From a phage, in assembly GCA_024673055.1 (NCBI GenBank), contig GCA_024673055.1_4537.1: 64,000 nucleotides of DNA. The stretch is one strand, 5' to 3'. Positions within the stretch are counted from its first letter, which is position 1, and every line of letters starts with the position of its first letter. Shown here piece after piece: positions 5,771 to 63,605 of the stretch. The notes under the pieces were generated by a model. It worked only from the letters and a program-made list of their open reading frames with translations. It was not told the origin of the DNA and made no database searches. The translations under genes and the position numbers were made by a program.

Positions 5771-5779
5771 GGAGTTATA

Positions 5780-50192: not shown

Positions 50193-50394
50193 CCTTCAGA
50201 CCCTTAATGAAGTAACGACTAACCGGATTCCCTCGGAAGTATTCGTTAATGAAATCGATAACACACGTTTCACTGCCTGTCACAACGGACGGCTTACAGT
50301 TTTGGAATTCTACAGCTACACGGCTGGCTTTAGCCAGTGCTTGCACACGTGTAGGATCAGTCAAGAACATTGTGACAGTTTTCAAATTCTTCAT
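50185..50394 (-). CDS. hypothetical protein
   Basis: 69-aa track ORF. Confidence 0.4.
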   Translation of the reverse strand: MKNLKTVTMFLTDPTRVQALAKASRVAVEFQNCKPSVVTGSETCVIDFINEYFRGNPVSRYFIKGLKDA

Positions 50395-50443
50395 TTCATC
50401 TCCTCATTGGCTATCTGTTATGTCATCCATTATACAAACATCT

Positions 50444-50818
50444 TTATTCAATGCAAGCATTATTTGCATCTTCAATTCTGTCTTTCACCCACTGAAGACG
50501 TAACGTGTTGGTATGACACGCCAAGTTTATACACTCTGAAAGGTAATCCATGCAATCTGCATTGAACGGAAGATTGTAGTCCAACCCTGCACATGTAAAT
50601 TGTTTCCTCATTTCATATTTCAAACGGTCCAACAAACTATCCCGCCATCTTCTATCTTCTTCTCTAGTTGTCTCACCAACAAAATCATCTACATAATCTA
50701 CCAGACAACCGCATAAGCCACTCGTTGTGCGATTCATTGCAGGATAGTTGGCAATCCATGCTTTATAGAAGCGAAGTAATGTTGCACTACTCAACGGAAC
50801 ATTTTTACTCTCTTGCAT
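50444..50818 (-). CDS. paralog family G (first gene of the minus-strand block)
   Basis: LLRFYKAWI, SGLCGCL, NLPFN, RLQWVKDRI. Confidence 0.5.
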   Translation of the reverse strand: MQESKNVPLSSATLLRFYKAWIANYPAMNRTTSGLCGCLVDYVDDFVGETTREEDRRWRDSLLDRLKYEMRKQFTCAGLDYNLPFNADCMDYLSECINLACHTNTLRLQWVKDRIEDANNACIE

Positions 50819-51157
50819 GATAATCTCCTCTCATCGTTAGCCATCTTTCATGGCAATCATCAATCACCAACATCATACGATCAATCTTAAGGAATTACAA
50901 TCGAATTATCATAGGGGATTCCTATCAATTATCCTATATATACCGATTATTTTTGACACCCCACTCTTGTATAAAAAGTAACCCAAAATATCTACGGGGA
51001 GAGATTATTTCGACACACCCTGTTTCATGGCAATCATGGCAAGAATATCTAATAGAATCAATATGATATGGCAAAAATCATGGCGCATACGTAAGAAGTG
51101 CTTAACGCGAATTTTCGGGCCGTCAGGTCCACGCAGCGACAATTCCCAAATATCATG

Positions 51158-51181
51158 CGAATGAGAATAATTATCATTCGT
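51158..51181. repeat. palindromic operator-like box (Fur-box-like)
   Basis: GCGAATGAGAATAATTATCATTCG near-perfect inverted repeat. Confidence 0.45.
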
Positions 51182-51336
51182 ATTCAATGACTTATGCAAG
51201 GCTCATGCCAACATAGCGACAAGGTGGGCCACTTGATTATAAATCACACAAACACTTATTTATCAATGGTTTGGCAACTTCATCATATGACGGAACAATG
51301 TCAACTAATCCCGCCCATGACAGACGGACTATTATT

Positions 51337-51358
51337 TATATGAGAATGATTATTATTT
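51337..51358. repeat. palindromic operator-like box
   Basis: ATATGAGAATGATTATTATTTA, same core as 63829 repeats. Confidence 0.4.
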
Positions 51359-52247
51359 AAACGTTTATTAACATAAAAACCAGAATAAATCAAGAATTTT
51401 CTGATTTTATTTACGTTTAAGAGAACGTGCTCAACATCCTACCGGATCGCCGTTGGCAATCCTCGGGTATTTACGCCCCCATAATTATTGCCATGCTAAT
51501 TATTTCCTTATGTAATTACCACAATGATTATTGTTATTGCGCTAATGTTATGATCTTGGTAATTACATATAATGCTAATAATAAGCCAGCGCAATAAGTG
51601 TAAGCGTCATTACGCTTGCAATTATTGCAAGCTACGCAGTAACAAGAAATAACCATCACCGATGGTTATGATTGTTGGGGTGTAGTTGGCTTATTATTAG
51701 CTCGCTATGTGTCCGGCATAGCGTGCTAATGATAATCCTGGGAATGATTCGTTTTGTAATGATTTCATTCAGTCACTATTATGGCAATAGTTATTATTTT
51801 AATGGTTTCGTTTGTTATTGTTCGTTAGTTGGTTGTTTTGTCGTGTTATCGTTATCTTGCTTAGTATTCATCATGGTTTGATTGTTTGTCGTTATCAATC
51901 ATCTTGCTATTATTCCTTTGATTATGATTAGTTTGCTTATTGTTTTAGGTTGTTGGTTAGTTAGTTGTTGCGAACTATTATCAACATTATAGTTATGCAC
52001 TTATATTGCATAGATAAACATGGATAGATGATAATGGTTATCATTGCACTAGAAAGGAGGTAAAAGGGTGTTTTTGATGGTTTGTTGTTGGTTGTTGATC
52101 GATTTTAACCGCTATAAATGGCTCTCTAACAGCCTGTTACCCTGGGAGGTATGGTTATTCGTTTAATGGTTGATTAGCTCGATACCGCGATTTATTCAAT
52201 TTTGTTCTGTGTCGGTTTTTCATAGGCGAAAGCTATCAACATTGTTC

Positions 52248-52277
52248 GGGCAAAAAGAAAGGGCGCTTGGTGCGCCC
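52248..52277 (-). terminator. intrinsic terminator ending the small-gene array
   Basis: GGGCGC-ACCAA-GCGCCC hairpin (read on - strand) followed by TTTCTTTTT; same hairpin recurs at 52826 and 58301. Confidence 0.55.
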
Positions 52278-52293
52278 CTTGTTTTGTTGTCGC

Positions 52294-52713
52294 TTATAAC
52301 GCTTCATAGATTGAGTAGATCCGGTTTGCAAGGTCATTACGAAAGCGGAATTTTTCATCACGTTTGATCATCAGATCCTTAAAACCGCATTCTTTCAGTG
52401 CTTCATTAACTTTATGGCGGCAAACGTTCATATTATCCTGCGCGTCACCAATAAACTTATTACTGTGATGCATTGCTTTGATCTCTTCCTCCAATACCAG
52501 GGCAACTACACGGATCGGATCAAGCTGATATGCGGTAACATCCATGCGGCATTGTAAACGGCTTTTAACATCGTTTACCGGATACACTGCAACCTCTTCC
52601 CCGTCAACGTTCACGATAACCAATTTACCATCGATTTCGAAGCCTTTGGCGGCGCTACCGTGACAAAAAGCGTTATCGAAGGAGTAAGCTGGATTATTTG
52701 ATTTAATGTTCAT
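52294..52713 (-). CDS. hypothetical protein
   Basis: 139-aa track ORF. Confidence 0.5.
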   Translation of the reverse strand: MNIKSNNPAYSFDNAFCHGSAAKGFEIDGKLVIVNVDGEEVAVYPVNDVKSRLQCRMDVTAYQLDPIRVVALVLEEEIKAMHHSNKFIGDAQDNMNVCRHKVNEALKECGFKDLMIKRDEKFRFRNDLANRIYSIYEAL

Positions 52714-52825
52714 GGTGTTGTCCTTTGTTTCGTTTCGTTGTTTGCTGCCAGTGAGTTAAATATAATATAACGCCGATCCCCTGTCAATAGGGGATAGCGC
52801 ATTATTTACATTTCTTTACGTTAAA

Positions 52826-52842
52826 GGGCGCTTGGTGCGCCC
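52826..52842 (-). terminator. stem-loop (copy of GGGCGCTTGGTGCGCCC)
   Basis: Identical 17-bp hairpin downstream of 52853..53221. Confidence 0.4.
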
Positions 52843-52852
52843 TTGTATAATC

Positions 52853-53221
52853 TTACTTTGTGCTGTTGTAAACGTTATCGCGTTCAACCATCACGGCAAG
52901 GCGGATCAGTTGATCAGTTGTATCGCGTAAATTGTCGGGCCATGTTTTACTGTTCCAGCTATCCAGGTTTGACTGTATATAGGTTTCAATGGCTTGATCC
53001 ATATTATCAAACAAGTTTTCCTCCAGGCTCTCGGCTGTTTCACACTGGAAAGCATTAGCGACACTATTAATCAATAAGCAAGCCAGTAAATCAGCATTAC
53101 GCCAATTTTTACGGATAGTTTCATCTGTCAGATAACCAACGAGATTAACCTTTGCGCCAGTGGTTGACGTTGCGATCACTTCTTGTGCTTTTTCAAGTGC
53201 TTTAATTGCTGATTTGCTCAT
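52853..53221 (-). CDS. hypothetical protein
   Basis: 122-aa track ORF. Confidence 0.5.
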   Translation of the reverse strand: MSKSAIKALEKAQEVIATSTTGAKVNLVGYLTDETIRKNWRNADLLACLLINSVANAFQCETAESLEENLFDNMDQAIETYIQSNLDSWNSKTWPDNLRDTTDQLIRLAVMVERDNVYNSTK

Positions 53222-53299
53222 CTTCTTTTCCTCTTTGTGGGCTTGCTGTATTGCTCGCCCTACGCAATAACTATAAGTTAACAGGAGAAATAAAGCAAG

Positions 53300-53533
53300 C
53301 TATTTTTTATAAAATTTTTCTGCTGTGATATTCTTCCCAGTAGGCTTAACCACTTGCAAGATCTTATCATGTGCCGAACGTCCAAAAGAGTAAGATCCGT
53401 ACACGGTAAACCAATAATCCCCGTTCGGTTGAACGGTTACGGCGGCGTACGGTGTACCTCTTTCATTATCCCCGATAAAGTGAGAAACATTACCGTTAAC
53501 ATTTGGTTTAGTGCTTTTAATTTGTTCGATCAT
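53300..53533 (-). CDS. hypothetical protein
   Basis: 77-aa track ORF. Confidence 0.45.
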   Translation of the reverse strand: MIEQIKSTKPNVNGNVSHFIGDNERGTPYAAVTVQPNGDYWFTVYGSYSFGRSAHDKILQVVKPTGKNITAEKFYKK

Positions 53534-53551
53534 GATATAACTCCTAAATCA

Positions 53552-53610
53552 GGCGGGAAACATTCCCGCCCTACGTGATAAATGATAATGTAAGCGTGAT
53601 CCGGTGTCAA
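53552..53610 (-). promoter_or_regulatory. promoter + stem-loop cassette (PeSL-like)
   Basis: On - strand: TTGACA (53605-53610) ... -10 ... hairpin GGCGGGAA-tgt-TTCCCGCC (53552-53570) in leader. Confidence 0.5.
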
Positions 53611-53785
53611 TAGGTAGGATTGTAAAGATTTGATAGTTTATCTCTTTGATGTTTTGTTGTTTGATAGATGTTAGCTATCAATATATAGCGGGGTCGTCCG
53701 GTGATTATCTTCCCCTGCTCCCAGGTGCCGCCCGTTCAATAAGTATAACAAAAAACAGGACAAAAACAAGCCCTGTTTATTTATC

Positions 53786-53920
53786 TTAAAACCAGTTGCC
53801 AACCGTTTCCAATAGGTCACTGACTACCAGGACAACATTAATCAGCACATGTTCAACCATGAAAGGGATAAGCGCCAGCGTTGCTACTACGATCCCCATT
53901 GTGATGATTACCTTTCTCAT
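53786..53920 (-). CDS. small membrane protein (44 aa)
   Basis: ATG 53920; hydrophobic helix; below track cutoff. Confidence 0.3.
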   Translation of the reverse strand: MRKVIITMGIVVATLALIPFMVEHVLINVVLVVSDLLETVGNWF

Positions 53921-53922
53921 GG

Positions 53923-54207
53923 TTAGCGGCTTACGTAAGCTTTACCGTTTACGGTCATCGGTATGGCCTCAAGGTCTGGATCTTCCTTAAGGTCGCGTGC
54001 AAGCTCACCGCAGCGGATACCCTCGAATCCGTAGTACTCTGTTGTGCCGTCCTGGAAAGTTTTAGCGGCAAGGCATAGGCGATAATTAACGCCGATCCGG
54101 TTCACTGCGTTAATATCGGTTAACGTGATGGATTCTGGCAACTCTTTCGCCATTACAGGCGCGTTAATACCAACAACCAGGGCAACTACTGCGATCATCT
54201 TTTTCAT
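53923..54207 (-). CDS. secreted protein (signal peptide)
   Basis: MKKMIAVVALVVGINAPVMA signal peptide. Confidence 0.5.
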   Translation of the reverse strand: MKKMIAVVALVVGINAPVMAKELPESITLTDINAVNRIGVNYRLCLAAKTFQDGTTEYYGFEGIRCGELARDLKEDPDLEAIPMTVNGKAYVSR

Positions 54208-54262
54208 GCTTTCTAGCCTCTTCCTATTGCGTTTAATGGGGCGTTACCGCCGCGCTTATGGT

Positions 54263-54499
54263 TTATTGATTGATGTTATAATGAAAATTATTTTCTTCAA
54301 TAGCTTTTAAAATAAAAGCCGTGATCGCTTTCGTGTCTACTTGTTCGAACGTATCGGAATAGCACCAATAATGATCATCCCCTACTTTCGGCGGGTAAAC
54401 CTGGACAAGGAGATCGCCACCTGGTTGATCTATAAGCTCAACATGCAAGCCGGATGATTCAGCGGTTTTAACGGCGGTTAATACTGTTGCAATACTCAT
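54263..54499 (-). CDS. hypothetical protein
   Basis: 78-aa track ORF. Confidence 0.45.
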   Translation of the reverse strand: MSIATVLTAVKTAESSGLHVELIDQPGGDLLVQVYPPKVGDDHYWCYSDTFEQVDTKAITAFILKAIEENNFHYNINQ

Positions 54500-54543
54500 A
54501 ATCTTTTCCTTTCTGATGTGGGGCGTTGCCGCCCCTTTGTTGA

Positions 54544-54843
54544 TTAGATCGCTGTTTCCAGTAGTTCGGCTAACGTCTTACCGCCTGATAGTTGGTCTAA
54601 CGTTTGCTCTTCTGGCAAGAAATTAGCTGATATTAATCCGACTTGATTTCCTTTGTGCCAATTAGCTTGACGGATGATTCCATCCTTTAAAGATTTTACC
54701 GCCATTGTGCAACCGTCGCCAAATGATTCATTTTTATGATCCATCACTTCATAAGCGCCCAGCTTGCTACTGTTAGGCACCATTAACGCGAATACATCAC
54801 CAACAACCAGTTTTTCTACGGTAATAATAGCGATAGTTTCCAT
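54544..54843 (-). CDS. hypothetical protein
   Basis: 99-aa track ORF. Confidence 0.45.
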   Translation of the reverse strand: METIAIITVEKLVVGDVFALMVPNSSKLGAYEVMDHKNESFGDGCTMAVKSLKDGIIRQANWHKGNQVGLISANFLPEEQTLDQLSGGKTLAELLETAI

Positions 54844-54921
54844 TTTACTTTCCTCATTATCGGCGGCACCATTGCCGCCCTACGCATTAAATATAAGTTA
54901 TCTAAGAGATTAGATCAAGGA

Positions 54922-55113
54922 TTATTTTGTAAAGATTACAGCTTCATCAAAATTTTCAACATAGTAAGCAAGCTCTTCATTTGCTGCAACCATTCCTAAA
55001 AGTTGGCTATAAGATAAACCTTTGATCCCTTCCTCGTTGTTTAATGCTTCGATGATTTCATCAACGGGCGCAAAAAACATGTTATTCGATTCCAGATAGG
55101 TGATAGTTTTCAT
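54922..55113 (-). CDS. hypothetical protein
   Basis: 63-aa track ORF. Confidence 0.4.
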   Translation of the reverse strand: MKTITYLESNNMFFAPVDEIIEALNNEEGIKGLSYSQLLGMVAANEELAYYVENFDEAVIFTK

Positions 55114-55134
55114 AATGTTTACCTTTTACAGTGA

Positions 55135-55190
55135 GCGGCACCATTGCCGCCCTACGTGGTAAATATTAGCACACTGGCGATCTGTGTCAA
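55135..55190 (-). promoter_or_regulatory. promoter + stem-loop cassette (PeSL-like)
   Basis: - strand TTGACA (55185-55190), -10 near 55162-55167, hairpin GCGGCA-ATGG-TGCCGC (55135-55150). Confidence 0.55.
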
Positions 55191-55196
55191 TACTTT

Positions 55197-55583
55197 TTAT
55201 TCAATATAAATCAAATTATCTTCACCAATGTAAGCCGACACGTCCGGCATGAATTTAGCGGCATTTGTTAGGCGGTTCGCCGTGTTAGTGGTGTATATTT
55301 CAGGTCGATCCCAAAAGCCTACGCCGTGACTGTTACGGGTAAAATGTAAATCATTTCCGATCTGGTTGGCTGTTGCGCCGTCGCTCATTGCCTCAGAGAT
55401 AGCGGCAAGATTAGCATTAATAAAGGCTGTTACATCCTGGGCGATCCGTTTGTCCGCGCTAGGAGAAAAATCATAATCGTCTAAGTTATCAATAAAATTA
55501 CCTTCATGATCCCTTGCTGATTCAGCAAAAATAAAGGCTTCTTTATAGCCGTTGATGACTTCGTTAATGATTTCTGTTTTCAT
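55197..55583 (-). CDS. hypothetical protein
   Basis: 128-aa track ORF. Confidence 0.5.
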   Translation of the reverse strand: MKTEIINEVINGYKEAFIFAESARDHEGNFIDNLDDYDFSPSADKRIAQDVTAFINANLAAISEAMSDGATANQIGNDLHFTRNSHGVGFWDRPEIYTTNTANRLTNAAKFMPDVSAYIGEDNLIYIE

Positions 55584-55804
55584 GCTGTACGCTCGACAAT
55601 AATAATGGTTTGCGGGATCTCGTTTTCTGCAACTATCAAGGCTTTTTTCTGCGTAATAGATATTTTAACACGTTGTAAACTAGCGGTAAAGTCTTTCATT
55701 TCATTGTGTGCGGACTTCGTGCAATGCCAGATCTCAGGCTTACCAATTTGTAAGCCGCGTAAAAATTCCGTTTTTCCTATTTTGTTCGTGATCATTTGTT
55801 TCAC
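55580..55804 (-). CDS. hypothetical protein
   Basis: 74-aa track ORF. Confidence 0.45.
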   Translation of the reverse strand: MKQMITNKIGKTEFLRGLQIGKPEIWHCTKSAHNEMKDFTASLQRVKISITQKKALIVAENEIPQTIIIVERTA

Positions 55805-55805
55805 C

Positions 55806-55910
55806 TTAACCGATACCGTGGGAAGATAGGATCATGTTAGCCATAGTTGCAACCACTCCAACCGATAACGCCAGGCCCACTATTACAACCGTGAAAATTT
55901 TCTCTAACAT
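55806..55910 (-). CDS. small membrane protein (34 aa)
   Basis: ATG 55910; hydrophobic; below cutoff. Confidence 0.3.
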   Translation of the reverse strand: MLEKIFTVVIVGLALSVGVVATMANMILSSHGIG

Positions 55911-55928
55911 GATTCTACCCTCATTAAT

Positions 55929-55990
55929 GGGCGTTGCCTTATTGCCCCGCCCTACGAAATACATTCTACCCGATTTATAATTGTTGTCAA
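55929..55990 (-). promoter_or_regulatory. promoter + stem-loop cassette (degenerate)
   Basis: TTGACA at 55985-55990 (- strand); imperfect GC-rich hairpin. Confidence 0.4.
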
Positions 55991-55991
55991 A

Positions 55992-56261
55992 TTATTTTTT
56001 CAAGCTTGACCACTCAAAACACGGGGCGATCTCGTTAAAACTTGCACCCTGTAAAGCACATAATTTTTTAGCAATAGCCGCCGTAACCTGGCGTTGTACG
56101 CGCGGATCTGCTACTGATTGGAGAAAGTAGGCGGCTTTATATGTGATCATGCTTTCGCCTGTTTCCTTGTTAACATGATGCACTATTTTAGCCTTATCAT
56201 CTTTTACCAGGATGTAACCGGATTCGATGGCCTTGATTGCAACGTCCAATGATATTTTCAT
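55992..56261 (-). CDS. hypothetical protein
   Basis: 89-aa track ORF. Confidence 0.45.
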   Translation of the reverse strand: MKISLDVAIKAIESGYILVKDDKAKIVHHVNKETGESMITYKAAYFLQSVADPRVQRQVTAAIAKKLCALQGASFNEIAPCFEWSSLKK

Positions 56262-56308
56262 GATTTACCTCTTTATTGACGGCGGGGAATACTCCCCCGC
56301 CTCATTAA

Positions 56309-56479
56309 TTATTCTTCATCGTCGCTGTTATAGTATTCAATGCCATTTTCATCGGTTACGGTGATGTTAACGCCACCGATAGCAACACGATCACGGGCAA
56401 ACGTCATAGCTTCATTTAAATCTTCAGACCAAAAAATATTGTGACCTTTGCGCGATACATAAAACATAGTCGGGATCAT
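56309..56479 (-). CDS. hypothetical protein (56 aa)
   Basis: Track ORF 56309..56563 trimmed: N-terminal 28 codons are translation of the conserved cassette hairpin (YHIGRRNGP). Confidence 0.4.
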   Translation of the reverse strand: MIPTMFYVSRKGHNIFWSEDLNEAMTFARDRVAIGGVNITVTDENGIEYYNSDDEE

Positions 56480-56498
56480 GATTTGTTTCTCTTCTGTT

Positions 56499-56563
56499 GT
56501 GAGCGGTGGACCATTCCGCCGCCCTATGTGGTAAACTTTACTACGTTGTTTGCGTGCTGTCAA
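56499..56563 (-). promoter_or_regulatory. promoter + stem-loop cassette
   Basis: TTGACA 56558-56563 (- strand); hairpin GGCGGTGGACCATTCCGCCGCC. Confidence 0.5.
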
Positions 56564-56564
56564 A

Positions 56565-56849
56565 TTATTTTTTAATGTTTTGCCCTACAAAATTAATCAT
56601 TTCCTTAAGCTGTCTCTCTGTCATGATCGTACCTGGTAACTCTTCTTTAATTTCTTCCGGTAAATAGATATTACCGCGCCAGGTTAACAAACAACCGTTT
56701 TGATCTTCGCAGATAGAATAAGAAAACATCCACTCGCAATCATTTTCAAGCTCCCAAAAACACAAAAAGTCTTCTTTCCCTAAGTTTTCAACGGTTAAAC
56801 ATAATCCGCGACGTGCTGCATAATTAGTTAGGCTTTTTGTAATTTTCAT
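56565..56849 (-). CDS. hypothetical protein
   Basis: 94-aa track ORF. Confidence 0.45.
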   Translation of the reverse strand: MKITKSLTNYAARRGLCLTVENLGKEDFLCFWELENDCEWMFSYSICEDQNGCLLTWRGNIYLPEEIKEELPGTIMTERQLKEMINFVGQNIKK

Positions 56850-56870
56850 GATTTTTCTCTCTTCTTGTGA

Positions 56871-56926
56871 GCGGCACCATTGCCGCCCTACAAGATATAT
56901 ATTATCAGACTAGGCGGACTTGTCAA
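56871..56926 (-). promoter_or_regulatory. promoter + stem-loop cassette
   Basis: Hairpin GCGGCA-CCAT-TGCCGC 56871-56886; TTGACA 56921-56926 (- strand). Confidence 0.55.
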
Positions 56927-56927
56927 A

Positions 56928-57038
56928 CTATTTTTTCTTTTTCTTTGCTTCCAACCGTCTAAAGTTACGGCTTGACTTATTGCGCAAGGCGCTTAGATCG
57001 TCGTACCCTTTCCATGCTTGCATATCTTTCGGATTCAT
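56928..57038 (-). CDS. small basic protein (36 aa)
   Basis: AAGGGGATAAC then ATG 57038; lysine-rich C-terminus. Confidence 0.3.
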   Translation of the reverse strand: MNPKDMQAWKGYDDLSALRNKSSRNFRRLEAKKKKK

Positions 57039-57047
57039 GTTATCCCC

Positions 57048-57209
57048 TTACTTGTTAGCCGGATCATATACCAGGACCGCGCCGCTTGCTTTCACGCTTT
57101 CCGCTTCATAGTTGCGCAGATCGTTTTCTGTAAGATTGAGCGCGATCACTTCCTCGATCTCAACGCCAGCGGCAAGGGCGATCTCTTTGATAATATCTGT
57201 TGTTTTCAT
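57048..57209 (-). CDS. small hypothetical protein (53 aa)
   Basis: ATG 57209; no internal stops. Confidence 0.3.
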   Translation of the reverse strand: MKTTDIIKEIALAAGVEIEEVIALNLTENDLRNYEAESVKASGAVLVYDPANK

Positions 57210-57219
57210 GGTGTGCACC

Positions 57220-57339
57220 TTATAAGATGATTAATAAGATAGTGACAACGAAAGCGATTATACTGATGGCAAATGTCATCTTTTTACCTTCGGATACTGC
57301 CGGATTCTCTACCGTGTATTCTACTGTGTACTTGCTCAT
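57220..57339 (-). CDS. small membrane protein (39 aa)
   Basis: GAGGATTACACG then ATG 57339; C-terminal TM helix. Confidence 0.3.
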   Translation of the reverse strand: MSKYTVEYTVENPAVSEGKKMTFAISIIAFVVTILLIIL

Positions 57340-57362
57340 CGTGTAATCCTCTCGTTTGCTTT

Positions 57363-57420
57363 GGGAACTATTCCCGCCGCCCTATGAATTAAATATACAC
57401 TATCTCAAAATGATTGCAAG
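57363..57420 (-). promoter_or_regulatory. promoter + stem-loop cassette (TTGCAA -35 variant)
   Basis: Hairpin GGGAACTATTCCC; TTGCAA at 57415-57420 (- strand). Confidence 0.4.
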
Positions 57421-57436
57421 CCTTTTTCTAAATTAT

Positions 57437-57721
57437 TTATGCAGTAAACAAACCATCATTTACAACGGCGGCGATGATCTCCCGTGCCATTGATTCAGGG
57501 AAAGGGGCGCTATAATCCTGGCTTGTCTCATCGGTATCGGTGATCCAATGATAAGCTAACGAGTAAAAGCCTTTACTAACTGTTTTCAGTGAGATGATGA
57601 TCACTCGGTCAAGCTTATTGGTGAATGTTGCCGTTAATGTGTTACCCTCCTGCGTCATGTTGGACAAGTAAGCTGGATCATTAATCAGGGAAAACATTAG
57701 CACGGTGTTAGCTTTACTCAT
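57437..57721 (-). CDS. hypothetical protein
   Basis: Track ORF trimmed to second ATG (57721) downstream of cassette hairpin. Confidence 0.45.
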   Translation of the reverse strand: MSKANTVLMFSLINDPAYLSNMTQEGNTLTATFTNKLDRVIIISLKTVSKGFYSLAYHWITDTDETSQDYSAPFPESMAREIIAAVVNDGLFTA

Positions 57722-57741
57722 GATTGCATCCTCAAAGGGGC

Positions 57742-57795
57742 GCGGCACCATTGCCGCCCTACACGATAACTATAACACAATGTAAAACAGGATCA
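57742..57795 (-). promoter_or_regulatory. promoter + stem-loop cassette (TTGATC -35 variant)
   Basis: Hairpin GCGGCA-CCAT-TGCCGC 57742-57757. Confidence 0.4.
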
Positions 57796-57999
57796 ACCTT
57801 TATTTTTCCACGGTGTTAGTTTGTTAATCATTGGTGATAAATAGCGTTTACCAACGTAAAACAGCACGCCAACTGATGCAACGGCGGCGACCTCATGCAT
57901 AGCCGACGGGAAACGGGTATCATAATAAGATCCAATAATAGCAATAGCGGCAACGGCTGCAACGTCGATAATGATTTTCTCTTGTTTTGCGGTGATCAT
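57793..57999 (-). CDS. small membrane protein
   Basis: 68 aa; two hydrophobic helices. Confidence 0.45.
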   Translation of the reverse strand: MITAKQEKIIIDVAAVAAIAIIGSYYDTRFPSAMHEVAAVASVGVLFYVGKRYLSPMINKLTPWKNKG

Positions 58000-58021
58000 A
58001 ATATTTACCTTTTTGTATGGT

Positions 58022-58078
58022 GGGGAACTATTCCCCGCCTGATGTAATACAGTTTAACAGGTCCGGTTATGGTGTCAA
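58022..58078 (-). promoter_or_regulatory. promoter + stem-loop cassette
   Basis: Hairpin GGGGAACTATTCCCC; TTGACA 58073-58078 (- strand). Confidence 0.5.
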
Positions 58079-58084
58079 CCACTT

Positions 58085-58270
58085 TTAAAGATATTTTATG
58101 CTAATGACGTTTTCAGGTTTTACCTTGTTATGATGTGCATCAACATAGATTAAACCATCGTCAGAAAAGCCCAGGATCACGCCCTGCGCGATAAAACCGT
58201 ACTCGTCACGGTAACGCACGGCTATTTTTAATGTTGCGTTGTAGGCTGTTTTAAGCTCGTTTAAAGTCAT
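58085..58270 (-). CDS. hypothetical protein
   Basis: 61-aa track ORF. Confidence 0.4.
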   Translation of the reverse strand: MTLNELKTAYNATLKIAVRYRDEYGFIAQGVILGFSDDGLIYVDAHHNKVKPENVISIKYL

Positions 58271-58300
58271 TTTTGTTTATCCTCTACATGTAAAAAGAAA

Positions 58301-58317
58301 GGGCGCTTGATGCGCCC
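58301..58317 (-). terminator. stem-loop (third copy of GGGCGCTTGATGCGCCC) with U-tract
   Basis: Hairpin followed on - strand by TTTCTTTTT. Confidence 0.45.
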
Positions 58318-58325
58318 TTGTTATG

Positions 58326-58472
58326 TTAATCCTCTAAATCCATCCAATTATATTTGTCACTCTTCCCGCGCTTTGTTTTATTGCGCTTGTCGCCTTTGCG
58401 GATCACTTCCTCGTTCCAGGCCTTGCGGATCTTGGAAGATTGGATTTTTTCTGCGCGATTAGATGTATTCAT
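58326..58472 (-). CDS. small basic protein (48 aa)
   Basis: ATG 58472 downstream of cassette; lysine/arginine-rich. Confidence 0.3.
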   Translation of the reverse strand: MNTSNRAEKIQSSKIRKAWNEEVIRKGDKRNKTKRGKSDKYNWMDLED

Positions 58473-58492
58473 TTTGTTTCCTCTTTATATGA

Positions 58493-58545
58493 GCGGCACC
58501 ATTGCCGCTATATTATTAATTTAAACTTTTTTGTAAAATTGTCAA
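58493..58545 (-). promoter_or_regulatory. promoter + stem-loop cassette
   Basis: Hairpin GCGGCA-CCAT-TGCCGC 58493-58508; TTGACA 58540-58545. Confidence 0.5.
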
Positions 58546-58551
58546 GGTTTA

Positions 58552-58905
58552 TCATTCATAAGAGCAAGCAAGGATCACGCCTGCAATATAAAGCCAATAA
58601 TTTTCCCTTTCTCGTTGGATTTTATCATCGCTGCTATTCTCTTTAATGTATCCCCAGGATGTTAACAAGCGATCAATTTCCCAATATTCGAAAGCGATAT
58701 TAATATCTGATGGCAAACCTTGTAACCATGATGCAAGTGCTTTAACAATACTATAATTAAAACGTGATTGGTTATCAGGGTACCAGTACTCGGAATTAAA
58801 ACGGCGCATCAATTCCGCGATCTTCTCTTTTTCGGTTGTAATACCGTAATCATTAAAATCGATAGCGGCAAGGATGTACTCTTTAATTGCATTTTGTGCT
58901 TTCAT
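58552..58905 (-). CDS. hypothetical protein
   Basis: 117-aa track ORF. Confidence 0.5.
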   Translation of the reverse strand: MKAQNAIKEYILAAIDFNDYGITTEKEKIAELMRRFNSEYWYPDNQSRFNYSIVKALASWLQGLPSDINIAFEYWEIDRLLTSWGYIKENSSDDKIQRERENYWLYIAGVILACSYE

Positions 58906-58923
58906 GGTTTTTCTCTCTTTTTA

Positions 58924-58980
58924 GCGGGAACTATTCCCGCCCTACGTGTAACAGTTTACTGAAAATTAAATCCGTGTCAA
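58924..58980 (-). promoter_or_regulatory. promoter + stem-loop cassette
   Basis: Hairpin GCGGGAA-CTA-TTCCCGC; TTGACA 58975-58980. Confidence 0.5.
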
Positions 58981-58983
58981 GCT

Positions 58984-59205
58984 TTATTTTGTTACTACCA
59001 TTTGGTACCCTGTCTCAATGTTAGTAAACACTGTTATCCCGTCCTGGCGTTCACTCATTAACATACAAGGCGCTAACATCCTTTCTACTGCCTTGCACTC
59101 GTTGTAAACGGCGGTTATATCTCCTGCGGCCTTGTCTTCTGTGGTGAATGTATCGTTTACGTAAACTTGACCAGCAACAACGGTGACAATAGCGAAAGTG
59201 ATCAT
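58984..59205 (-). CDS. hypothetical protein
   Basis: 73-aa track ORF; shares first 5 codons (MITFA) and upstream 20 nt with next gene. Confidence 0.45.
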   Translation of the reverse strand: MITFAIVTVVAGQVYVNDTFTTEDKAAGDITAVYNECKAVERMLAPCMLMSERQDGITVFTNIETGYQMVVTK

Positions 59206-59279
59206 GGTGTTTCCTTGTCAGTAGTGGTTTCTCTTCTCTATAGCGCCCATTATAAGGCGCTATAACGAAAAGTCAACGA

Positions 59280-59447
59280 TTATTTTTTAAGGCTTAAAGT
59301 GCCTAGCTTATCAGCGTGACGCAGACCAGGGAAGATCCATTTTCCTGATTCATCTTTTACAGGTGCTTTAAACGTAGCGCCCAGGTTGGCGGCGTTAACT
59401 TTACGGGCAACGTTGCGAGCGGCTTCACGGGTAGCGAAAGTGATCAT
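59280..59447 (-). CDS. small hypothetical protein (55 aa)
   Basis: ATG 59447; N-terminus MITFA duplicated from 58984..59205. Confidence 0.35.
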   Translation of the reverse strand: MITFATREAARNVARKVNAANLGATFKAPVKDESGKWIFPGLRHADKLGTLSLKK

Positions 59448-59472
59448 GGTGTTTTCCTCTTCTCTTTGTTAG

Positions 59473-59558
59473 GCGGTGGACCATTCCGCCGCCTTGATGT
59501 AATACAGTTTACTTTATTTTATTAAGATTGCAAGCGGTTTTATGAAATAATTGTCAAA
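59473..59558 (-). promoter_or_regulatory. promoter + stem-loop cassette
   Basis: Hairpin GGCGGTGGACCATTCCGCCGCC; TTGACA 59553-59558. Confidence 0.5.
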
Positions 59559-59755
59559 GTAAAATCATAAGACTGATTTAATTTATATTGTACTTTATTG
59601 CCGTAGTAGTCACCTTTACGTAAAGATCCGCGAATACCTATCACATCCTTTACATCTTTAAGATTTTTTACGCCTGTAATGTCTTTATTGAAATACTCGT
59701 CATCTGAAAATAAAACTTGACTTGCATTTTTTAACAGTGTGCGGATATTGGCCAT
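59540..59755 (-). CDS. hypothetical protein
   Basis: 71-aa track ORF. Confidence 0.4.
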   Translation of the reverse strand: MANIRTLLKNASQVLFSDDEYFNKDITGVKNLKDVKDVIGIRGSLRKGDYYGNKVQYKLNQSYDFTLTIIS

Positions 59756-59780
59756 CGTAATAATCTCTCTTCTGTTGTGA

Positions 59781-59836
59781 GCGGCACCATTGCCGCCCTA
59801 CGTAATACAGTTTACTCTTTTTCTTTCCGGTGTCAA
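59781..59836 (-). promoter_or_regulatory. promoter + stem-loop cassette
   Basis: Hairpin GCGGCA-CCAT-TGCCGC 59781-59796; TTGACA 59831-59836. Confidence 0.55.
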
Positions 59837-59845
59837 CAATCTTTT

Positions 59846-60073
59846 TCAGATTAATTCGTCCAGGCATAACAGGCGATCAACGTTGAGATCGGTTAGGCTG
59901 ATGGTTGGCACCTGGTAGGATTCGATGTACTCAACGCTTGCATATTCCCCAAAATTAGCAACAGCCCACTTATTCAAGATCTCACATACATCATTAATCT
60001 TTTTGTTTGTTACAACGGCAATGACCTGGGAAGTGCCAACGGTGCCAGATACGCGAACAATATTGATAGCCAT
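59846..60073 (-). CDS. hypothetical protein
   Basis: 75-aa track ORF. Confidence 0.45.
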   Translation of the reverse strand: MAINIVRVSGTVGTSQVIAVVTNKKINDVCEILNKWAVANFGEYASVEYIESYQVPTISLTDLNVDRLLCLDELI

Positions 60074-60085
60074 AATCTTTAATCT

Positions 60086-60154
60086 CTCTGTTTTGGCGGG
60101 AAACCACTTCCCGCCCTATGTGATACATCTTACACTAATTTTAAACGTTGTCAA
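60086..60154 (-). promoter_or_regulatory. promoter + stem-loop cassette
   Basis: Hairpin GGCGGGAA-ACCAC-TTCCCGCC 60086-60106; TTGACA 60149-60154. Confidence 0.55.
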
Positions 60155-60163
60155 CTGTTTTTA

Positions 60164-60403
60164 TTACATTCCAACCATCGCGGCACGGATCGCAGTAGTG
60201 CTATATTTGAAACCGTCTGGCGTTTTATCTTGTCCAGTTTGTTCCAGAAAAAGCATCATATCCCGCGCCGCATCATTACGATTAGCATTAGCGTTAATAA
60301 AATCTTGGGCCAACCGGTATAACGATTCATCGTTATTAATCCAAAGGCTTACATTCCAATGATTTTTGTTTTTGTGACCGTTGTACATTTTAGATTTAGC
60401 CAT
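60164..60403 (-). CDS. hypothetical protein
   Basis: 79-aa track ORF. Confidence 0.45.
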   Translation of the reverse strand: MAKSKMYNGHKNKNHWNVSLWINNDESLYRLAQDFINANANRNDAARDMMLFLEQTGQDKTPDGFKYSTTAIRAAMVGM

Positions 60404-60427
60404 GATTTTTCTCTCTTTTTCAGTGAG

Positions 60428-60486
60428 GCGGGAAGTGTTCCCGCTCTCTATGTAATATAGTTTACTCTTTCTATTCGTGCTGTCAA
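60428..60486 (-). promoter_or_regulatory. promoter + stem-loop cassette
   Basis: Hairpin GCGGGAAGTGTTCCCGC; TTGACA 60481-60486. Confidence 0.5.
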
Positions 60487-60492
60487 TGCTTT

Positions 60493-60876
60493 TTATAAAT
60501 CTTTTTTACGTTTTACATCGCTCGCATGACTGTATACAGTGATCCCATTGTCACGGCAAAAACGGGAAAGGTAGGCATAATTTGAAAACTCTTTACCTTC
60601 CAGGTTGATAACCTTGCTAAACTCTTCTAGGGCAACGGTATCAAAATGATCACCATAGCCATATTGAAACGGAACGTTAACCACCTCGATCAGTTTACCG
60701 CCGATCTCAACGTCAACCATTAAAGAAAAATATGTGTTACCGTAGGACCGTTGAAACCAGCGACGGGCGCTAATATGCACCGCCTCAATGCTGGATAATT
60801 CAATTTTAGCCGTGTTAGCCATGGTAGCATAAGCGGAAACATTAATATTAATAGCCATGATGATAACCTTTTTCAT
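60493..60876 (-). CDS. hypothetical protein
   Basis: 127-aa track ORF. Confidence 0.5.
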   Translation of the reverse strand: MKKVIIMAININVSAYATMANTAKIELSSIEAVHISARRWFQRSYGNTYFSLMVDVEIGGKLIEVVNVPFQYGYGDHFDTVALEEFSKVINLEGKEFSNYAYLSRFCRDNGITVYSHASDVKRKKDL

Positions 60877-60880
60877 TGTT

Positions 60881-60940
60881 GGCGGGAAACCACTTCCCGC
60901 CTTATGTGGTAAACTATACCAGAAGTTTAAACAGTGTCAA
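60881..60940 (-). promoter_or_regulatory. promoter + stem-loop cassette
   Basis: Hairpin GGCGGGAAACCACTTCCCGCC; TTGACA 60935-60940. Confidence 0.5.
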
Positions 60941-60946
60941 CCGTTT

Positions 60947-61309
60947 TTATTCGTAAATTTTACCGCTTTCGGCCCATACCATAACGCGGCGCATACTATC
61001 CCAAGTGTTTTGATCCAAGTTTAAGCCGTGCAACTCTTCGGTACTTCCCAGACCAGGTACCGCCTTGTTGTAAGTTGCATATAAGCGCCCTTGATACTCA
61101 TACGCCAGGGTGAGATCCGTTTGAATCATCTTTTTAAGCATAGCATTAAGCATCATATTAGCGGCATGTTGATCACGTTTTAGCGGTAACATATCAATAA
61201 GGGCGCGATAAGCTGAAACATGAATATCAACCGTTTCACGTGGTAAATTTTTCATATCATCGCGGAAAGATACCAGATTAAACATGATAGTATTGATTTG
61301 CTTGCTCAT
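60947..61309 (-). CDS. hypothetical protein
   Basis: 120-aa track ORF. Confidence 0.5.
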   Translation of the reverse strand: MSKQINTIMFNLVSFRDDMKNLPRETVDIHVSAYRALIDMLPLKRDQHAANMMLNAMLKKMIQTDLTLAYEYQGRLYATYNKAVPGLGSTEELHGLNLDQNTWDSMRRVMVWAESGKIYE

Positions 61310-61330
61310 TGTGTTACCCTTTTTTGTTTT

Positions 61331-61391
61331 GGCGGTGGACCATTCCGCCGCCCTATGTGATACATCTTATCAGATTAAAAAACGTTGTCAA
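61331..61391 (-). promoter_or_regulatory. promoter + stem-loop cassette
   Basis: Hairpin GGCGGTGGACCATTCCGCCGCC; TTGACA 61386-61391. Confidence 0.5.
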
Positions 61392-61400
61392 GAATATTTT

Positions 61401-61496
61401 TTAGAAAATAATAGCCGCTACTACAACCCAAAATGGAACGGCGAAAATGATAGCGTTAATCGTTCCAACCGTCAAGCTATTTTCTTTATTAATCAT
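61401..61496 (-). CDS. small membrane protein (31 aa)
   Basis: ATG 61496; hydrophobic C-terminal half. Confidence 0.3.
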   Translation of the reverse strand: MINKENSLTVGTINAIIFAVPFWVVVAAIIF

Positions 61497-61525
61497 TGCA
61501 AACCTCTTGCATAATTTCACTATGA

Positions 61526-61582
61526 GCGGCACCATTGCCGCCCTACGTGGTAAATATTATGCCAGTGGCGGCGATATGTCAA
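61526..61582 (-). promoter_or_regulatory. promoter + stem-loop cassette
   Basis: Hairpin GCGGCA-CCAT-TGCCGC 61526-61541; TTGACA 61577-61582. Confidence 0.55.
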
Positions 61583-62145
61583 AGACTATTTTCAAAGTTT
61601 TCTAGCGCGATCCTTTTTTCTTCCTCTGTCGGCTGATAATCAGGAAAAGCATCAACACACAACAACGGCGGGATCTCTTCGTACTCTTCCTCTTCCGTTG
61701 TCTCCTCGTCTTCCTCCTGGGCTATGGCTGCAATTTTGGCTAATTTTCTTTCAGCTTGAATCAATTTACCATCAAGTACGTTTTTTGCCATGTTGTAAGC
61801 GGTCCAGGTGATGCGCTTACTTTCCAGGGCTTGATCGAGCGCCGCTATCTTGCTGGGGTATTCATCCAGGACACGAAAAGCCGGATCAATTTTGTACAAA
61901 GGATTATCTTTCGCGCCGTCGCTCGCATCTTCCGCACTGGATAAATCAGCGTTACCATTTGCCAGCCAACCAGGGCGCACATAACGCGCTTTTACGTTGC
62001 CGTTACTACGTGCTAATCTGTTACCTATTTGCTCACCGCTATATCCCGTGGATTCATCGATAAGATGATCGGGAATGATGCGCGGATCATCTGCTTCATG
62101 TTTTACCCAAGACTGGATCACATATTCGCGGCCCATATTAACCAC
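61579..62145 (-). CDS. hypothetical protein with acidic C-terminal region
   Basis: 188-aa track ORF. Confidence 0.5.
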   Translation of the reverse strand: MVNMGREYVIQSWVKHEADDPRIIPDHLIDESTGYSGEQIGNRLARSNGNVKARYVRPGWLANGNADLSSAEDASDGAKDNPLYKIDPAFRVLDEYPSKIAALDQALESKRITWTAYNMAKNVLDGKLIQAERKLAKIAAIAQEEDEETTEEEEYEEIPPLLCVDAFPDYQPTEEEKRIALENFENSL

Positions 62146-62395
62146 CTTTTTTCAACAATTGGCATACTTTAAAAAGACTTGCTGAATCCTTGCAAGGGTA
62201 GAAAGATGTACGATAATCACGTACGCCAACCTTGCGGATCTCGATGTTTTCGCATGTTGTTTGATCAAAGATATTTATTTCATCCCGCCCCCTTATATAA
62301 ACATAGTGGGGATGTATTAACGCATATTTTGCTAATCTGTAAAAAGCGTTATCTTTGAACGCGATCACGTGACCTTTTAATTTGATGTAAAACAT
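62138..62395 (-). CDS. hypothetical protein
   Basis: 85-aa track ORF. Confidence 0.45.
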   Translation of the reverse strand: MFYIKLKGHVIAFKDNAFYRLAKYALIHPHYVYIRGRDEINIFDQTTCENIEIRKVGVRDYRTSFYPCKDSASLFKVCQLLKKGG

Positions 62396-62413
62396 TCTAC
62401 CACCTTACAAATA

Positions 62414-62468
62414 GCGGGAACTATTCCCGCTTTATGTAACATATTAACAAATTAGTCGTTAATGTCAA
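62414..62468 (-). promoter_or_regulatory. promoter + stem-loop cassette
   Basis: Hairpin GCGGGAA-CTA-TTCCCGC; TTGACA 62463-62468. Confidence 0.5.
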
Positions 62469-62471
62469 ACC

Positions 62472-62744
62472 TTAAAGCAAAAACGCTACATCTTGCGCTT
62501 TTAGTGTAGTGTCGATCATTTTCGGGCTTTTATAATCCACAAAGCGCGCGGTTTTTTCAATAGCAAAACCGAGATAATCTTGCTTGTTGAAATTACATTC
62601 TTTCTTAAATGTTTCCCGTGCAATGGCAATCGCTGCGTCCAGGGATAAACGCCCGTCAATATTGATATTAGCGAAAGATCCGCCACCGCTCATAGGTTTA
62701 CCAGTTGTGCCAGCTACGATCATTGTTGCGCTATATGATGCCAT
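62472..62744 (-). CDS. hypothetical protein
   Basis: Track ORF 62472..62801 trimmed: first 19 codons (MYHIGRRNGP...) are the translated cassette hairpin. Confidence 0.45.
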   Translation of the reverse strand: MASYSATMIVAGTTGKPMSGGGSFANINIDGRLSLDAAIAIARETFKKECNFNKQDYLGFAIEKTARFVDYKSPKMIDTTLKAQDVAFLL

Positions 62745-62766
62745 GATGATAATCTCTCTGTTGTGA

Positions 62767-62827
62767 GCGGCTGGACCATTCCGCCGCCCTATGTGATACA
62801 TCTTATCAGGTTGTTGTTTGTTGTCAA
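62767..62827 (-). promoter_or_regulatory. promoter + stem-loop cassette
   Basis: Hairpin GGCTGGACCATTCCGCCGCC; TTGACA 62822-62827. Confidence 0.5.
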
Positions 62828-62833
62828 TACTTT

Positions 62834-63031
62834 TTATTCTATCCCTGCAATTTGATTAACGCGCTTGCATTTTGTAGCGTGCTGGTCTTCTGTAATGACT
62901 CCCATTTCTAACAAGGAATCAATAAAAGATAAAACCGTTTCATGATCATCCTGGGGATGACTGAACTCAGTAAAACCATTTACCACGACGCTGATTTGTC
63001 CTGCTTTCGCTACTATGTGCAATGTTGCCAT
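62834..63031 (-). CDS. hypothetical protein
   Basis: 65-aa track ORF; first (most upstream) gene of the array. Confidence 0.4.
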   Translation of the reverse strand: MATLHIVAKAGQISVVVNGFTEFSHPQDDHETVLSFIDSLLEMGVITEDQHATKCKRVNQIAGIE

Positions 63032-63304
63032 GATTTTAACTCCAGGTGATGAATGATGTTTTTTGTTGGTGGACGGTGGATTATGGAGATCCTCACCTTT
63101 GCCCGTCCTGCATTGCGCCCGCCTGTTGTTTATTGTCGTTGTGCCGCGCCCCCCTCGACAAGATGAATACTACGCTACCAGGTGAGGAACGTCAACCACT
63201 TTTTCAATCTTTTTTATTTTCTTTTTGCTTGCTATGTATAAAGGAAAAGGCTATCATCTTTCTACCGCGCCAACCAGGGCGCACAACAAAGAAAGGGCGA
63301 CACC

Positions 63305-63571
63305 ATGACAAATACTACATTACACCTTATGCACTCATTGGGCTGGCAAGGCGGCACGGTGCACCAGGTCGCAAGCGCAACGGGCTTAAAGGTTGAAACC
63401 GTTCTCAACCTGGGCGATCATAAGGTGGAAGAAATAGAAAACTTTGATCCGTTCGCTGATGGTTATTTATGGGCTTGCAGTGGCGGCGGGGAAAGCAAGA
63501 TCCCACCAGGGGCGCGGGGCGATATGCATTTTTGGTTAGGTGTCCTATCCTGGCAAGAAAACAAAAAATAA
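63305..63571 (+). CDS. hypothetical protein (GC-rich ORF)
   Basis: 88-aa ORF; upstream AAAGGGCG weak SD; noticeably more GC-rich than the early module. Confidence 0.35.
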   Translation: MTNTTLHLMHSLGWQGGTVHQVASATGLKVETVLNLGDHKVEEIENFDPFADGYLWACSGGGESKIPPGARGDMHFWLGVLSWQENKK

Positions 63572-63575
63572 TCTT

Positions 63576-63605
63576 GACAAGCCCAGGGATCGGGCTTATA
63601 CTGTT
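63576..63605 (+). promoter_or_regulatory. sigma70-like promoter (TTGACA-17-TATACT)
   Basis: -35 TTGACA 63576-63581; -10 TATACT 63599-63604. Confidence 0.45.

Follow-up and report, generated by a model that had tools for sequence, protein, structure and literature searches.

The non-coding gap and its terminal repeat

The 64,000-nucleotide stretch of phage DNA analysed here (GenBank assembly GCA_024673055.1, contig GCA_024673055.1_4537.1), referred to throughout as the window, derives from a phAPEC8-like member of Phapecoctavirus, a myovirus of ∼150 kb in the subfamily Stephanstirmvirinae, and contains between positions 50819 and 52247 a gap that separates two minus-strand genes (50444-50818 and 52294-52713). 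The 1.7 kb around this gap are 96-98% identical to ∼65 Phapecoctavirus genomes, including phAPEC8, ECO340P1, P3322, and Mt1B1_P17, and ∼70-80% identical, patchwise, to genomes of Justusliebigvirus (phi92-type phages). An earlier note made from the letters of the window had described the gap as non-coding and placed it between two minus-strand blocks after a terminator, a description that holds. The longest open reading frame (ORF) inside it measures 69 aa, and none of the ORFs of at least 35 aa mapped onto a nine-genome alignment (Phapecoctavirus, the phiWec lineage, and Justusliebigvirus) is common to Phapecoctavirus and Justusliebigvirus. Careful annotations of relatives likewise carry no gene calls in this gap, and a plus-strand ORF at 52068, preceded by a strong Shine-Dalgarno sequence, was rejected as a gene as it is missing in phiWec190 and phi92. 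Searches for tRNA and tmRNA returned no match, and Rfam (Rfam 15) gave none in the whole window at gathering thresholds. The proteins encoded by the flanking genes have no Pfam match, and their PHROGs matches are only to families of unknown function.

The gap contains a 328-bp direct terminal repeat (DTR), which is found at both ends of related genomes. In the record of Mt1B1_P17, positions 1-328 and 150875-151202 are 100% identical to each other, and both map to window positions 51104-51431. A search with the 328 bp alone recovered at least 14 records, deposited by several laboratories, that begin or end exactly on this sequence, among them Schickermooser, BI-EHEC, WPEC1/2/4/6, three SA_NWU phages, and Ro121lw, and several of these records carry a second copy of the repeat at the opposite end. 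The window repeat is 96-98% identical to the repeats at both ends of finished Phapecoctavirus records. The RefSeq record of phi92 (NC_023693) annotates DTR-L at 1-343 and DTR-R at 148270-148612 (343 bp), and the boundaries of these features align with window positions 51103 and 51431. Similarity searches further show that numerous GenBank records start or stop within the gap, and many of them break here because 51104-51431 is the terminal repeat.

The identical end copies, the records ending on the 328 bp, and the alignment with the phi92 DTR therefore identify the gap as a collapsed concatemer junction, in which the assembly has joined the two physical genome ends of a phage whose packaged DNA is of unit length and carries short direct terminal repeats, a reading to which a probability of roughly 80% can be attached. 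One virion end runs from 51431 down to 50819 and then into the first gene, while the other runs from the terminator at 52280 through 51432 into the repeat; 51432-52247 is the untranslated sub-terminal region of this other end. The identity of the gap as the genome terminus had been missed in the earlier note. Its suggestion of a packaging or regulatory hub is nonetheless borne out by the repeat itself, its presence at both genome ends, its conserved boundary motifs, and the conserved box-IHF-box layout described below (Table 1).

A terminal repeat in this region is already known for relatives. A 328-bp terminal repeat has been reported for Schickermooser (vB_EcoM_Schickermooser; Korf et al., PMC6563267), direct terminal repeats at the ends of Stephanstirmvirinae genomes are stated in a 2025 paper (PMC12695924), and PhageTerm assigned a 342-bp repeat to BME3 (PMC12210895). 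In the V5-like phage LL12, the terminal repeat measures 459 bp and lies "in a noncoding region" (PMC6658697), and the genome map of rV5 includes a box labelled "non-coding" (PMC3606486). The DTRs of phi92 and other Stephanstirmvirinae are the same element as the window repeat, and the records and papers on the phi92 and Schickermooser DTRs give only its length and position, within the literature and annotations searched. The boundary motif, the IHF/Fur-type layout, the first-gene promoter, and the folded element described below appear undescribed in these papers and annotations.

Table 1. Features of the gap at 50819-52247 and its right-hand border, in window coordinates (a slash in a motif marks the repeat boundary).
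Feature	Position	Strand	Remarks
Sub-terminal leader between repeat and first gene	50819-51103	-	Promoter, conserved block, short repeats
Predicted sigma-70 promoter TTGTAA-N17-TATGAT for gene 50818-50444	50900 to 50872	-	50 nt upstream of first gene
Conserved block	50920-50960		Nine-genome alignment
Repeat GATTATTTnGACACaCCC, two copies	50945-50962 and 51003-51020		Repeat search
TCATGGCAA repeats	51025-51042		Repeat search
Left boundary motif GTGCTT/AAC	51098-51106	+	Presumed cleavage or nicking site
Direct terminal repeat, 328 bp, single copy here	51104-51431		Two end copies collapsed in assembly
Palindromic box 1 TGAGAATAATTATCA	51162-51176		14/15 match to Fur-box 7-1-7 consensus
IHF core consensus WATCAANNNNTTR (TATCAATGGTTTG)	51261-51273	+	Centre of repeat; putative
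Palindromic box 2 TGAGAATGATTATTA	51341-51355		13/15 match to Fur consensus
Inverted repeat AAATCAAGAATTTTCTGATTT near right boundary	51387-51407		Kept in 9/9 aligned genomes
Right boundary motif GTGCT/CAAC	51427-51435	+	Same orientation as left motif
Hypervariable spacer, indel-rich between strains	51432-51573		67-151 gap columns, 42-69% identity
Element A, conserved folded 150-nt element	51574-51723	+	Covariation, minimum free energy, covariance model
G+T-rich, C-poor tract	51746-52130	+	Minus strand reads A/C-rich, G-poor
Palindromic box 3 TGATAATGGTTATCA	52029-52043		14/15 match to Fur consensus
Element B, most conserved block	52131-52247		Core 52169-52238, TTGATTAGCTCGATACCGCGATTTATTCA...AAGCTATCA; adjoins terminator
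Intrinsic terminator of upstream minus-strand gene array	52258-52280	-	U-tail on + strand only in Phapecoctavirus, absent in phi92-type phages

Sequence signals in the repeat and its left flank

The two boundaries of the repeat share the motif GTGCT/YAAC. GTGCTYAAC occurs at only three sites in the 64 kb, two of which are the repeat boundaries, and a motif scan of 17 sequences, among them Citrobacter and Klebsiella phages as well as metagenome contigs, found it kept at the boundary in most lineages. The putative IHF site is the sole match to the IHF core consensus in the region, compared with nine in 64 kb. In 13 lineages it occurs together with the left boundary motif, at a distance of 163-167 bp in 12 of them and of 144 bp in Tr1; its ATCAA and TTR positions are invariant across lineages and the intervening NNNN is variable. 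The IHF core is flanked by two palindromic boxes, which the earlier note had already spotted near 51158 and 51337 and which are kept across genera. Box 1 sits ∼60 bp inside the left boundary in most lineages, and box 2 is found ∼80-90 bp past the IHF core, with the right boundary ∼86 bp further.

The boxes resemble the Fur-box consensus (19-bp form GATAATGATAATCATTATC), which was searched for in its 7-1-7 form TGATAATnATTATCA with up to two mismatches allowed. This pattern is matched seven times in the window, against 0.82 matches expected, and five of the seven matches fall in two non-coding regions (51162, 51341, and 52029 in the gap, and 63832 and 63890 near the end of the window). The homologue of box 2 in phi92-type phages, TGATAATGATTATCA, is a perfect 15/15 match to the consensus, and box 3 recurs ∼430-630 nt beyond the start of Element A, the folded element described below, in 13 of the 17 scanned sequences and also in phage Av-05. 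Phages of Escherichia, Klebsiella, and Citrobacter retain the boxes even though the rest of their repeats has diverged. The second non-coding region, 63808-64000, carries boxes at 63832-63846 (TGAGAATGATTATCA, 14/15) and 63890-63904 (TGCGAATCATTATCA, 13/15) and lies upstream of the minus-strand gene 63463-63807 (a homologue of phAPEC8_00257), as the promoter region heading the early small-gene array; its counterpart in phAPEC8 is a ∼490-bp gap after a terminator. Because the boxes recur at this early promoter region, they are more likely to bind a regulator, either host Fur or a phage protein, than the terminase.

On the left side of the repeat, the sub-terminal leader includes a predicted promoter for the first gene, the hexamers of which are kept in eight of nine sequences from two genera with a variable spacer, which is good comparative evidence for its assignment to this gene. 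The gene that it precedes is a single 375-nt gene in the window (50317-50818 compared), whereas relatives have two adjacent paralogues (369 and 345 nt, VOG7392 family), as seen in Mt1B1_P17 (1051-1890) and phAPEC8 (5745-6447). Similarity matches differ in length because the number of paralogues near the terminal region differs, and the pattern suggests gain or loss of paralogues through recombination between copies. The matches also include records labelled as Campylobacter phages B15, A150, and C3, Pseudomonas phage PsgM04F, and Acinetobacter phage vB_AbaM_ABPW7, which are 82-99% identical to these coliphages here and represent either wrong host labels or mixed samples.

Element A, the C-poor tract, and Element B

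On the right side of the repeat, the hypervariable spacer is followed by Element A, which starts 142 nt from the repeat boundary in the window and 140-340 bp from it across lineages, and which as a block is 76-78% identical even to phi92-type phages. Its closing helix pairs 51574-51588 with 51687-51701, is extended by AGCUACGC/GUGUAGUU, and encloses two hairpins, and a third hairpin (51703-51723) follows on the 3' side. Analysis of 12 sequences from five lineages with RNAalifold gave 53 pairs, with 99.6% of cells paired and compensatory double changes in 13 of the 53 pairs, a level reached by none of 500 column shuffles; when partners were slid by 1-3 columns as a control, 23-53% of cells were paired. 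The alignment includes ∼50 G·U cells, three pairs being G·U in all sequences, and at most one A·C cell, and only the plus strand can form this fold because the invariant G·U pairs are accompanied by a near absence of A·C. The minimum free energy is correspondingly -76.8 kcal/mol (z = -10) for the plus strand and -60.9 kcal/mol (z = -7.3) for the minus strand. A covariance model scores 140-176 bits in Escherichia, Citrobacter, and Klebsiella phages and eight metagenome contigs, and the newly recovered sequences bring further compensatory variants, while the unpaired loop and junction sequences are invariant. Covariation support for Element A already reaches what is usually demanded of a new family. 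Comparison with Rfam at E-values up to 10 returned only noise matches to eukaryotic snoRNAs and miRNAs. In Av-05 (Vequintavirinae), the model reaches only 18.6 bits, on an analogous long-stem element for which homology is not claimed.

Short repeats accompany Element A in several lineages. The motif (A/G)TGCTAAT(N)AT occurs four to five times around it in the window (51494, 51540, 51572, 51724, and inverted at 51692-51701) and recurs similarly upstream of Element A in other lineages; the 3' arm of the closing helix is a possible pairing partner of an upstream copy in Tr1 and phi1_175008. These copies hint at alternative pairing or at repeated protein sites. Right after Element A, Justusliebigvirus genomes (muut 4090-4151 and three others) have two to four tandem units of ∼16 nt (TGTATGAAATGATTAC-like), the copy number of which differs between strains, and the window has one degenerate copy at ∼51760-51780.

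The form in which Element A acts can be read in two ways. It may be a structured non-coding RNA gene, possibly together with the C-poor tract, that is transcribed from the plus strand inward from the repeat and has a regulatory or protein-binding role, a proposal that stands at about even odds and is compatible with the gap being the genome terminus. Covariation is found in every helix that varies, the wobble pairs are typical of RNA, the plus-strand fold is 16 kcal/mol more stable than that of the minus strand, and the constancy of loops and junctions points in the same direction. A TATAAT or TACAAT hexamer is present directly upstream of Element A in Phapecoctavirus, and the C-depleted tract downstream would shield an untranslated transcript from Rho. 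Against this, no sigma-70 promoter upstream of Element A is conserved across lineages, the Phapecoctavirus -10 hexamer would place the transcription start inside the closing helix, phi92-type phages have no plus-strand terminator, no Rfam family matches the element, and no expression data or transcriptome of these phages turned up in the literature searched. Alternatively, Element A could act as single-stranded DNA, either as a T7-style snap-back hairpin that aids duplication of the repeat or as an initiation signal on the lagging-strand template for inward forks. In T7, a palindrome implicated in concatemer processing lies just inside the right-end repeat, and Element A is placed 140-340 bp inside its repeat boundary; a fork entering from that end would use the plus strand as its lagging-strand template, the element cannot be assigned to a transcription unit, and these phages encode a T7 gp4-like primase-helicase (PMC3606486). 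A snap-back hairpin would not, however, call for anything as elaborate as the three-way junction, the invariant loops, and the invariant G·T positions, mismatched G·T is tolerated less well in DNA than G·U pairs are in RNA, and single-stranded intermediates lack direct evidence here. The DNA alternative appears rather unlikely.

Element A is followed by the tract that gives the gap its strand asymmetry (51746-52130; T 46%, G 20.5%, A 23%, and C 10.6%). The earlier note had called the plus strand of the whole 1.4 kb G+T-rich, which is correct for ∼51600-52250 only, since 50819-51431 has a G+T content of 0.44-0.46 and is slightly A+C-rich. The most G+T-rich 400 nt of the 64 kb start at 51701 (G+T 0.667, z = 4.3), and the short repeats ATTATT, TTGTT, and GTTA singled out in the earlier note are indeed two to four times over-represented relative to a first-order Markov model. 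A minus-strand transcript would be G-poor, at ∼10% G, rather than nearly G-free as had been stated. The homologous tract in Justusliebigvirus has 3-8% C with A ∼ T, and the conserved property is thus C-depletion of the plus strand, not T-richness. The tract sequence itself is only 44-61% identical to that of phi92-type phages. A comparison with phiWec, in which the tract is 96-98% identical, was considered as a sign of extra constraint and rejected, because the whole right arm including the flanking genes is 92-94% identical as a result of mosaic similarity.

Rho-dependent terminators load Rho on untranslated RNA of little structure, ∼80 nt or longer and with more C than G, that follows a gene. 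The minus-strand RNA over this non-coding tract would have a rut-like composition (C 20.5% and G 10.6%; C ∼18% and G 3-8% in phi92-type phages), and strong sigma-70 early promoters (TTGACA-N17-TAATAT) annotated in phAPEC8 lie upstream on the same strand. Judged by its composition, the minus-strand tract after the terminator is proposed as a probable Rho loading zone.

Between the tract and the terminator lies Element B, which is 85% identical to phi92-type phages and 83% identical to Avunavirus Av-05 of another subfamily. No sigma-70 promoter was recognised in it. Element B was also considered as a folded element and rejected for lack of convincing pairing or covariation, and as a plus-strand small RNA ending at a bidirectional terminator, which was rejected because phi92-type phages have no plus-strand U-tail. 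In Av-05, a ∼1.9-kb non-coding region (722-2638) contains Element B, Fur-type boxes (e.g., TGAGAATGGTTATCA near 2349), and a long-range stem (1970-2190), and its A/C-rich tract (∼1180-1420) differs from that of the window in both strand and side.

The earlier note had also raised a replication origin and a long non-coding or decoy RNA as functions of the gap, and the evidence favours neither. An origin could operate through an R-loop, formed by a plus-strand transcript with more G than C over an AT-rich unwinding tract, a route exemplified by ColE1 and by the T4 origins oriF and oriG. The tract is AT-rich (67-73% here and ∼80% in phi92-type phages), has a positive GC skew on the plus strand, and lies downstream of a folded element on the same strand, and terminal regions are plausible sites for recombination-dependent initiation. 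The region nevertheless contains no DnaA box (TTWTNCACA) and no iterons or tandem arrays, the only tandem repeats being two trivial ones (7 and 9 nt). The RNA, being rich in U, would form weak RNA-DNA hybrids, and promoter evidence is absent. Cumulative skew, put forward in the earlier note as a check, follows gene orientation over the 64 kb and turns near 33 kb, not at the gap. An origin here is improbable, and the region also has no Chi site. A long A/C-rich, G-poor minus-strand RNA running from Element B to the hairpin at 51669-51649, which might act as a sponge for an RNA-binding protein such as Hfq, is highly improbable. Such an RNA would begin at the highly conserved Element B, just downstream of the terminator on the minus strand, and end at a terminator-like hairpin with a U-rich tail, and AAC-type repeats are enriched along it. 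Yet Element B offers no sigma-70 promoter, the tract sequence is not conserved between genera, the AAC repeats keep no consistent A-R-N register, and the T·G positions of the 51669-51649 hairpin in phi92-type phages become A·C mismatches on the minus strand; the only fold in the gap with evidence of selection, that of Element A, belongs to the plus strand.

Two further observations concern the minus-strand array upstream of the gap. A GC-rich terminator hairpin (GGGCGC..GCGCCC) occurs nearly identically at least three times in it (52252-52288, 52823-52846, and 58292-58327). The "PHIRE promoters" annotated in phAPEC8 were considered as a class of phage promoters and rejected, since each is a conserved hairpin, GTAGGGCGGCAATGGTGCCGC, that immediately follows an ordinary TTGACA-N17-TAATAT promoter and resembles a stem-loop in the 5' leader of an early transcript. 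These features are found at 10248-10267, 11663-11682, 12513-12532, and 12894-12913 of phAPEC8, corresponding to the array at ∼53000-63800 of the window, and the PHIRE feature does not occur in the gap region.

A proposed packaging model and its relation to known systems

Conservation among related phages, another check put forward in the earlier note, is found across lineages for the repeat, the boxes, the boundary motif, Element A, and Element B, and a working model can be built on these parts. Replication would generate concatemers with one repeat per junction, and a packaging nuclease would recognise GTGCT/YAAC, in the same orientation at both boundaries, and make staggered cuts, after which strand-displacement synthesis would duplicate the repeat, as proposed for T7. 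The central IHF-type bend and the two flanking boxes may fold the repeat into a nucleoprotein complex, comparable to lambda cosB. The proposed Rho loading zone on the minus strand would keep transcription of the highly active early array from running on into Element A and the repeat. Element A itself would fold as a single plus strand, either as a structured RNA or as a single-stranded DNA structure that takes part in priming or in the processing of ends.

Several points weigh against the terminus reading and the functions attached to it. The termini of this particular phage are deduced from relatives that are 96-98% identical, and the proposed motif cleavage, IHF and Fur binding, and Rho dependence are read from sequence only. 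The two metagenomic lineages that have diverged furthest retain the IHF core but have boxes that match at fewer than 13/15 positions, and the boxes may therefore be dispensable; as AT-rich palindromes, their resemblance to the Fur consensus could be coincidental. Taken together, promoter-like matches in the region are no more frequent than chance predicts (16 versus 10.6 ± 3.3 in the window, 12 versus 11.2 in muut), and the C-depletion of the tract fits a plus-strand RNA evading Rho equally well.

A further-reaching joint proposal can be offered only tentatively, with doubt outweighing confidence. Element A would represent an undescribed class of structured nucleic acid, most likely a plus-strand RNA. 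Throughout a subfamily of large enterobacterial myoviruses it would be encoded next to the terminal repeat and would serve in end processing, packaging, or takeover of the host. The repeat, in turn, would be a packaging site organised by host factors, in which the IHF bend and the Fur-type boxes tie packaging or early transcription to host iron status.

Phages of Phapecoctavirus and of the phi92 type are isolated widely and serve in cocktails for phage therapy, and their genomes are usually deposited circularly permuted, with this region left unannotated or filled with spurious small ORFs. Recognition of 51104-51431 as the terminal repeat fixes the true genome ends and orientation. The cut-site motif, the IHF site, the Fur-type boxes, and the first-gene promoter are handles for engineering, for example of a minimal packaging signal for transduction or synthetic genomes, and Element A ranks as a strong candidate for a structured RNA or single-stranded DNA element of a new kind. 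Binding of Fur to the boxes, if real, would mean that a virulent phage exploits the iron regulator of its host both at the genome ends and at an early promoter; Fur boxes at the termini of virulent phages are unreported in the literature searched. Known Fur boxes overlap the promoters of iron-regulated genes. The window boxes match the enterobacterial Fur box at 13-15 of 15 positions, and two of them lie inside the packaging repeat of a virulent phage, where they are candidate Fur sites.

Among known systems, the phi29 pRNA resembles Element A in its length of ∼150 nt, its long 5'/3' helix, its three-way junction, and its position next to a genome terminus. This resemblance is in shape only, with no link to a packaging motor: Element A matches no Rfam family, including pRNA, at E-values up to 10, and phi29 replicates by protein priming and has no terminal repeat. 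In lambda cosB, the IHF site I1 lies between R3 and R2, the repeats bound by the small subunit of the terminase, and the arrangement of the window repeat is alike at the sequence level, as an IHF consensus lies centrally between two boxes near the presumed cut sites in nearly all lineages. The ends here are nonetheless 328-bp direct repeats instead of the 12-nt cohesive ends that define cos, and the boxes are Fur-consensus palindromes that also occur at the early promoter region and near Element B.

A further parallel is the concatemer junction of T7, where a 160-bp terminal repeat is flanked by non-coding DNA with early promoters, and where pac signals, the phiOR promoter, and a hairpin region are also found. 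The two junctions differ in that they share no sequence similarity, the present one belongs to a 150-kb myovirus that uses promoters for the host RNA polymerase, and Element A is a covarying three-way junction, not a simple palindrome. A counterpart of phiOR, as a promoter for a phage polymerase, was not found; Element B is conserved and correctly placed for one, but has no recognisable promoter. In both phages, however, a short non-permuted repeat is set within ∼1.3-1.8 kb of non-coding DNA, with an inward host-type promoter on one side and a structure-forming element just inside the repeat on the other.

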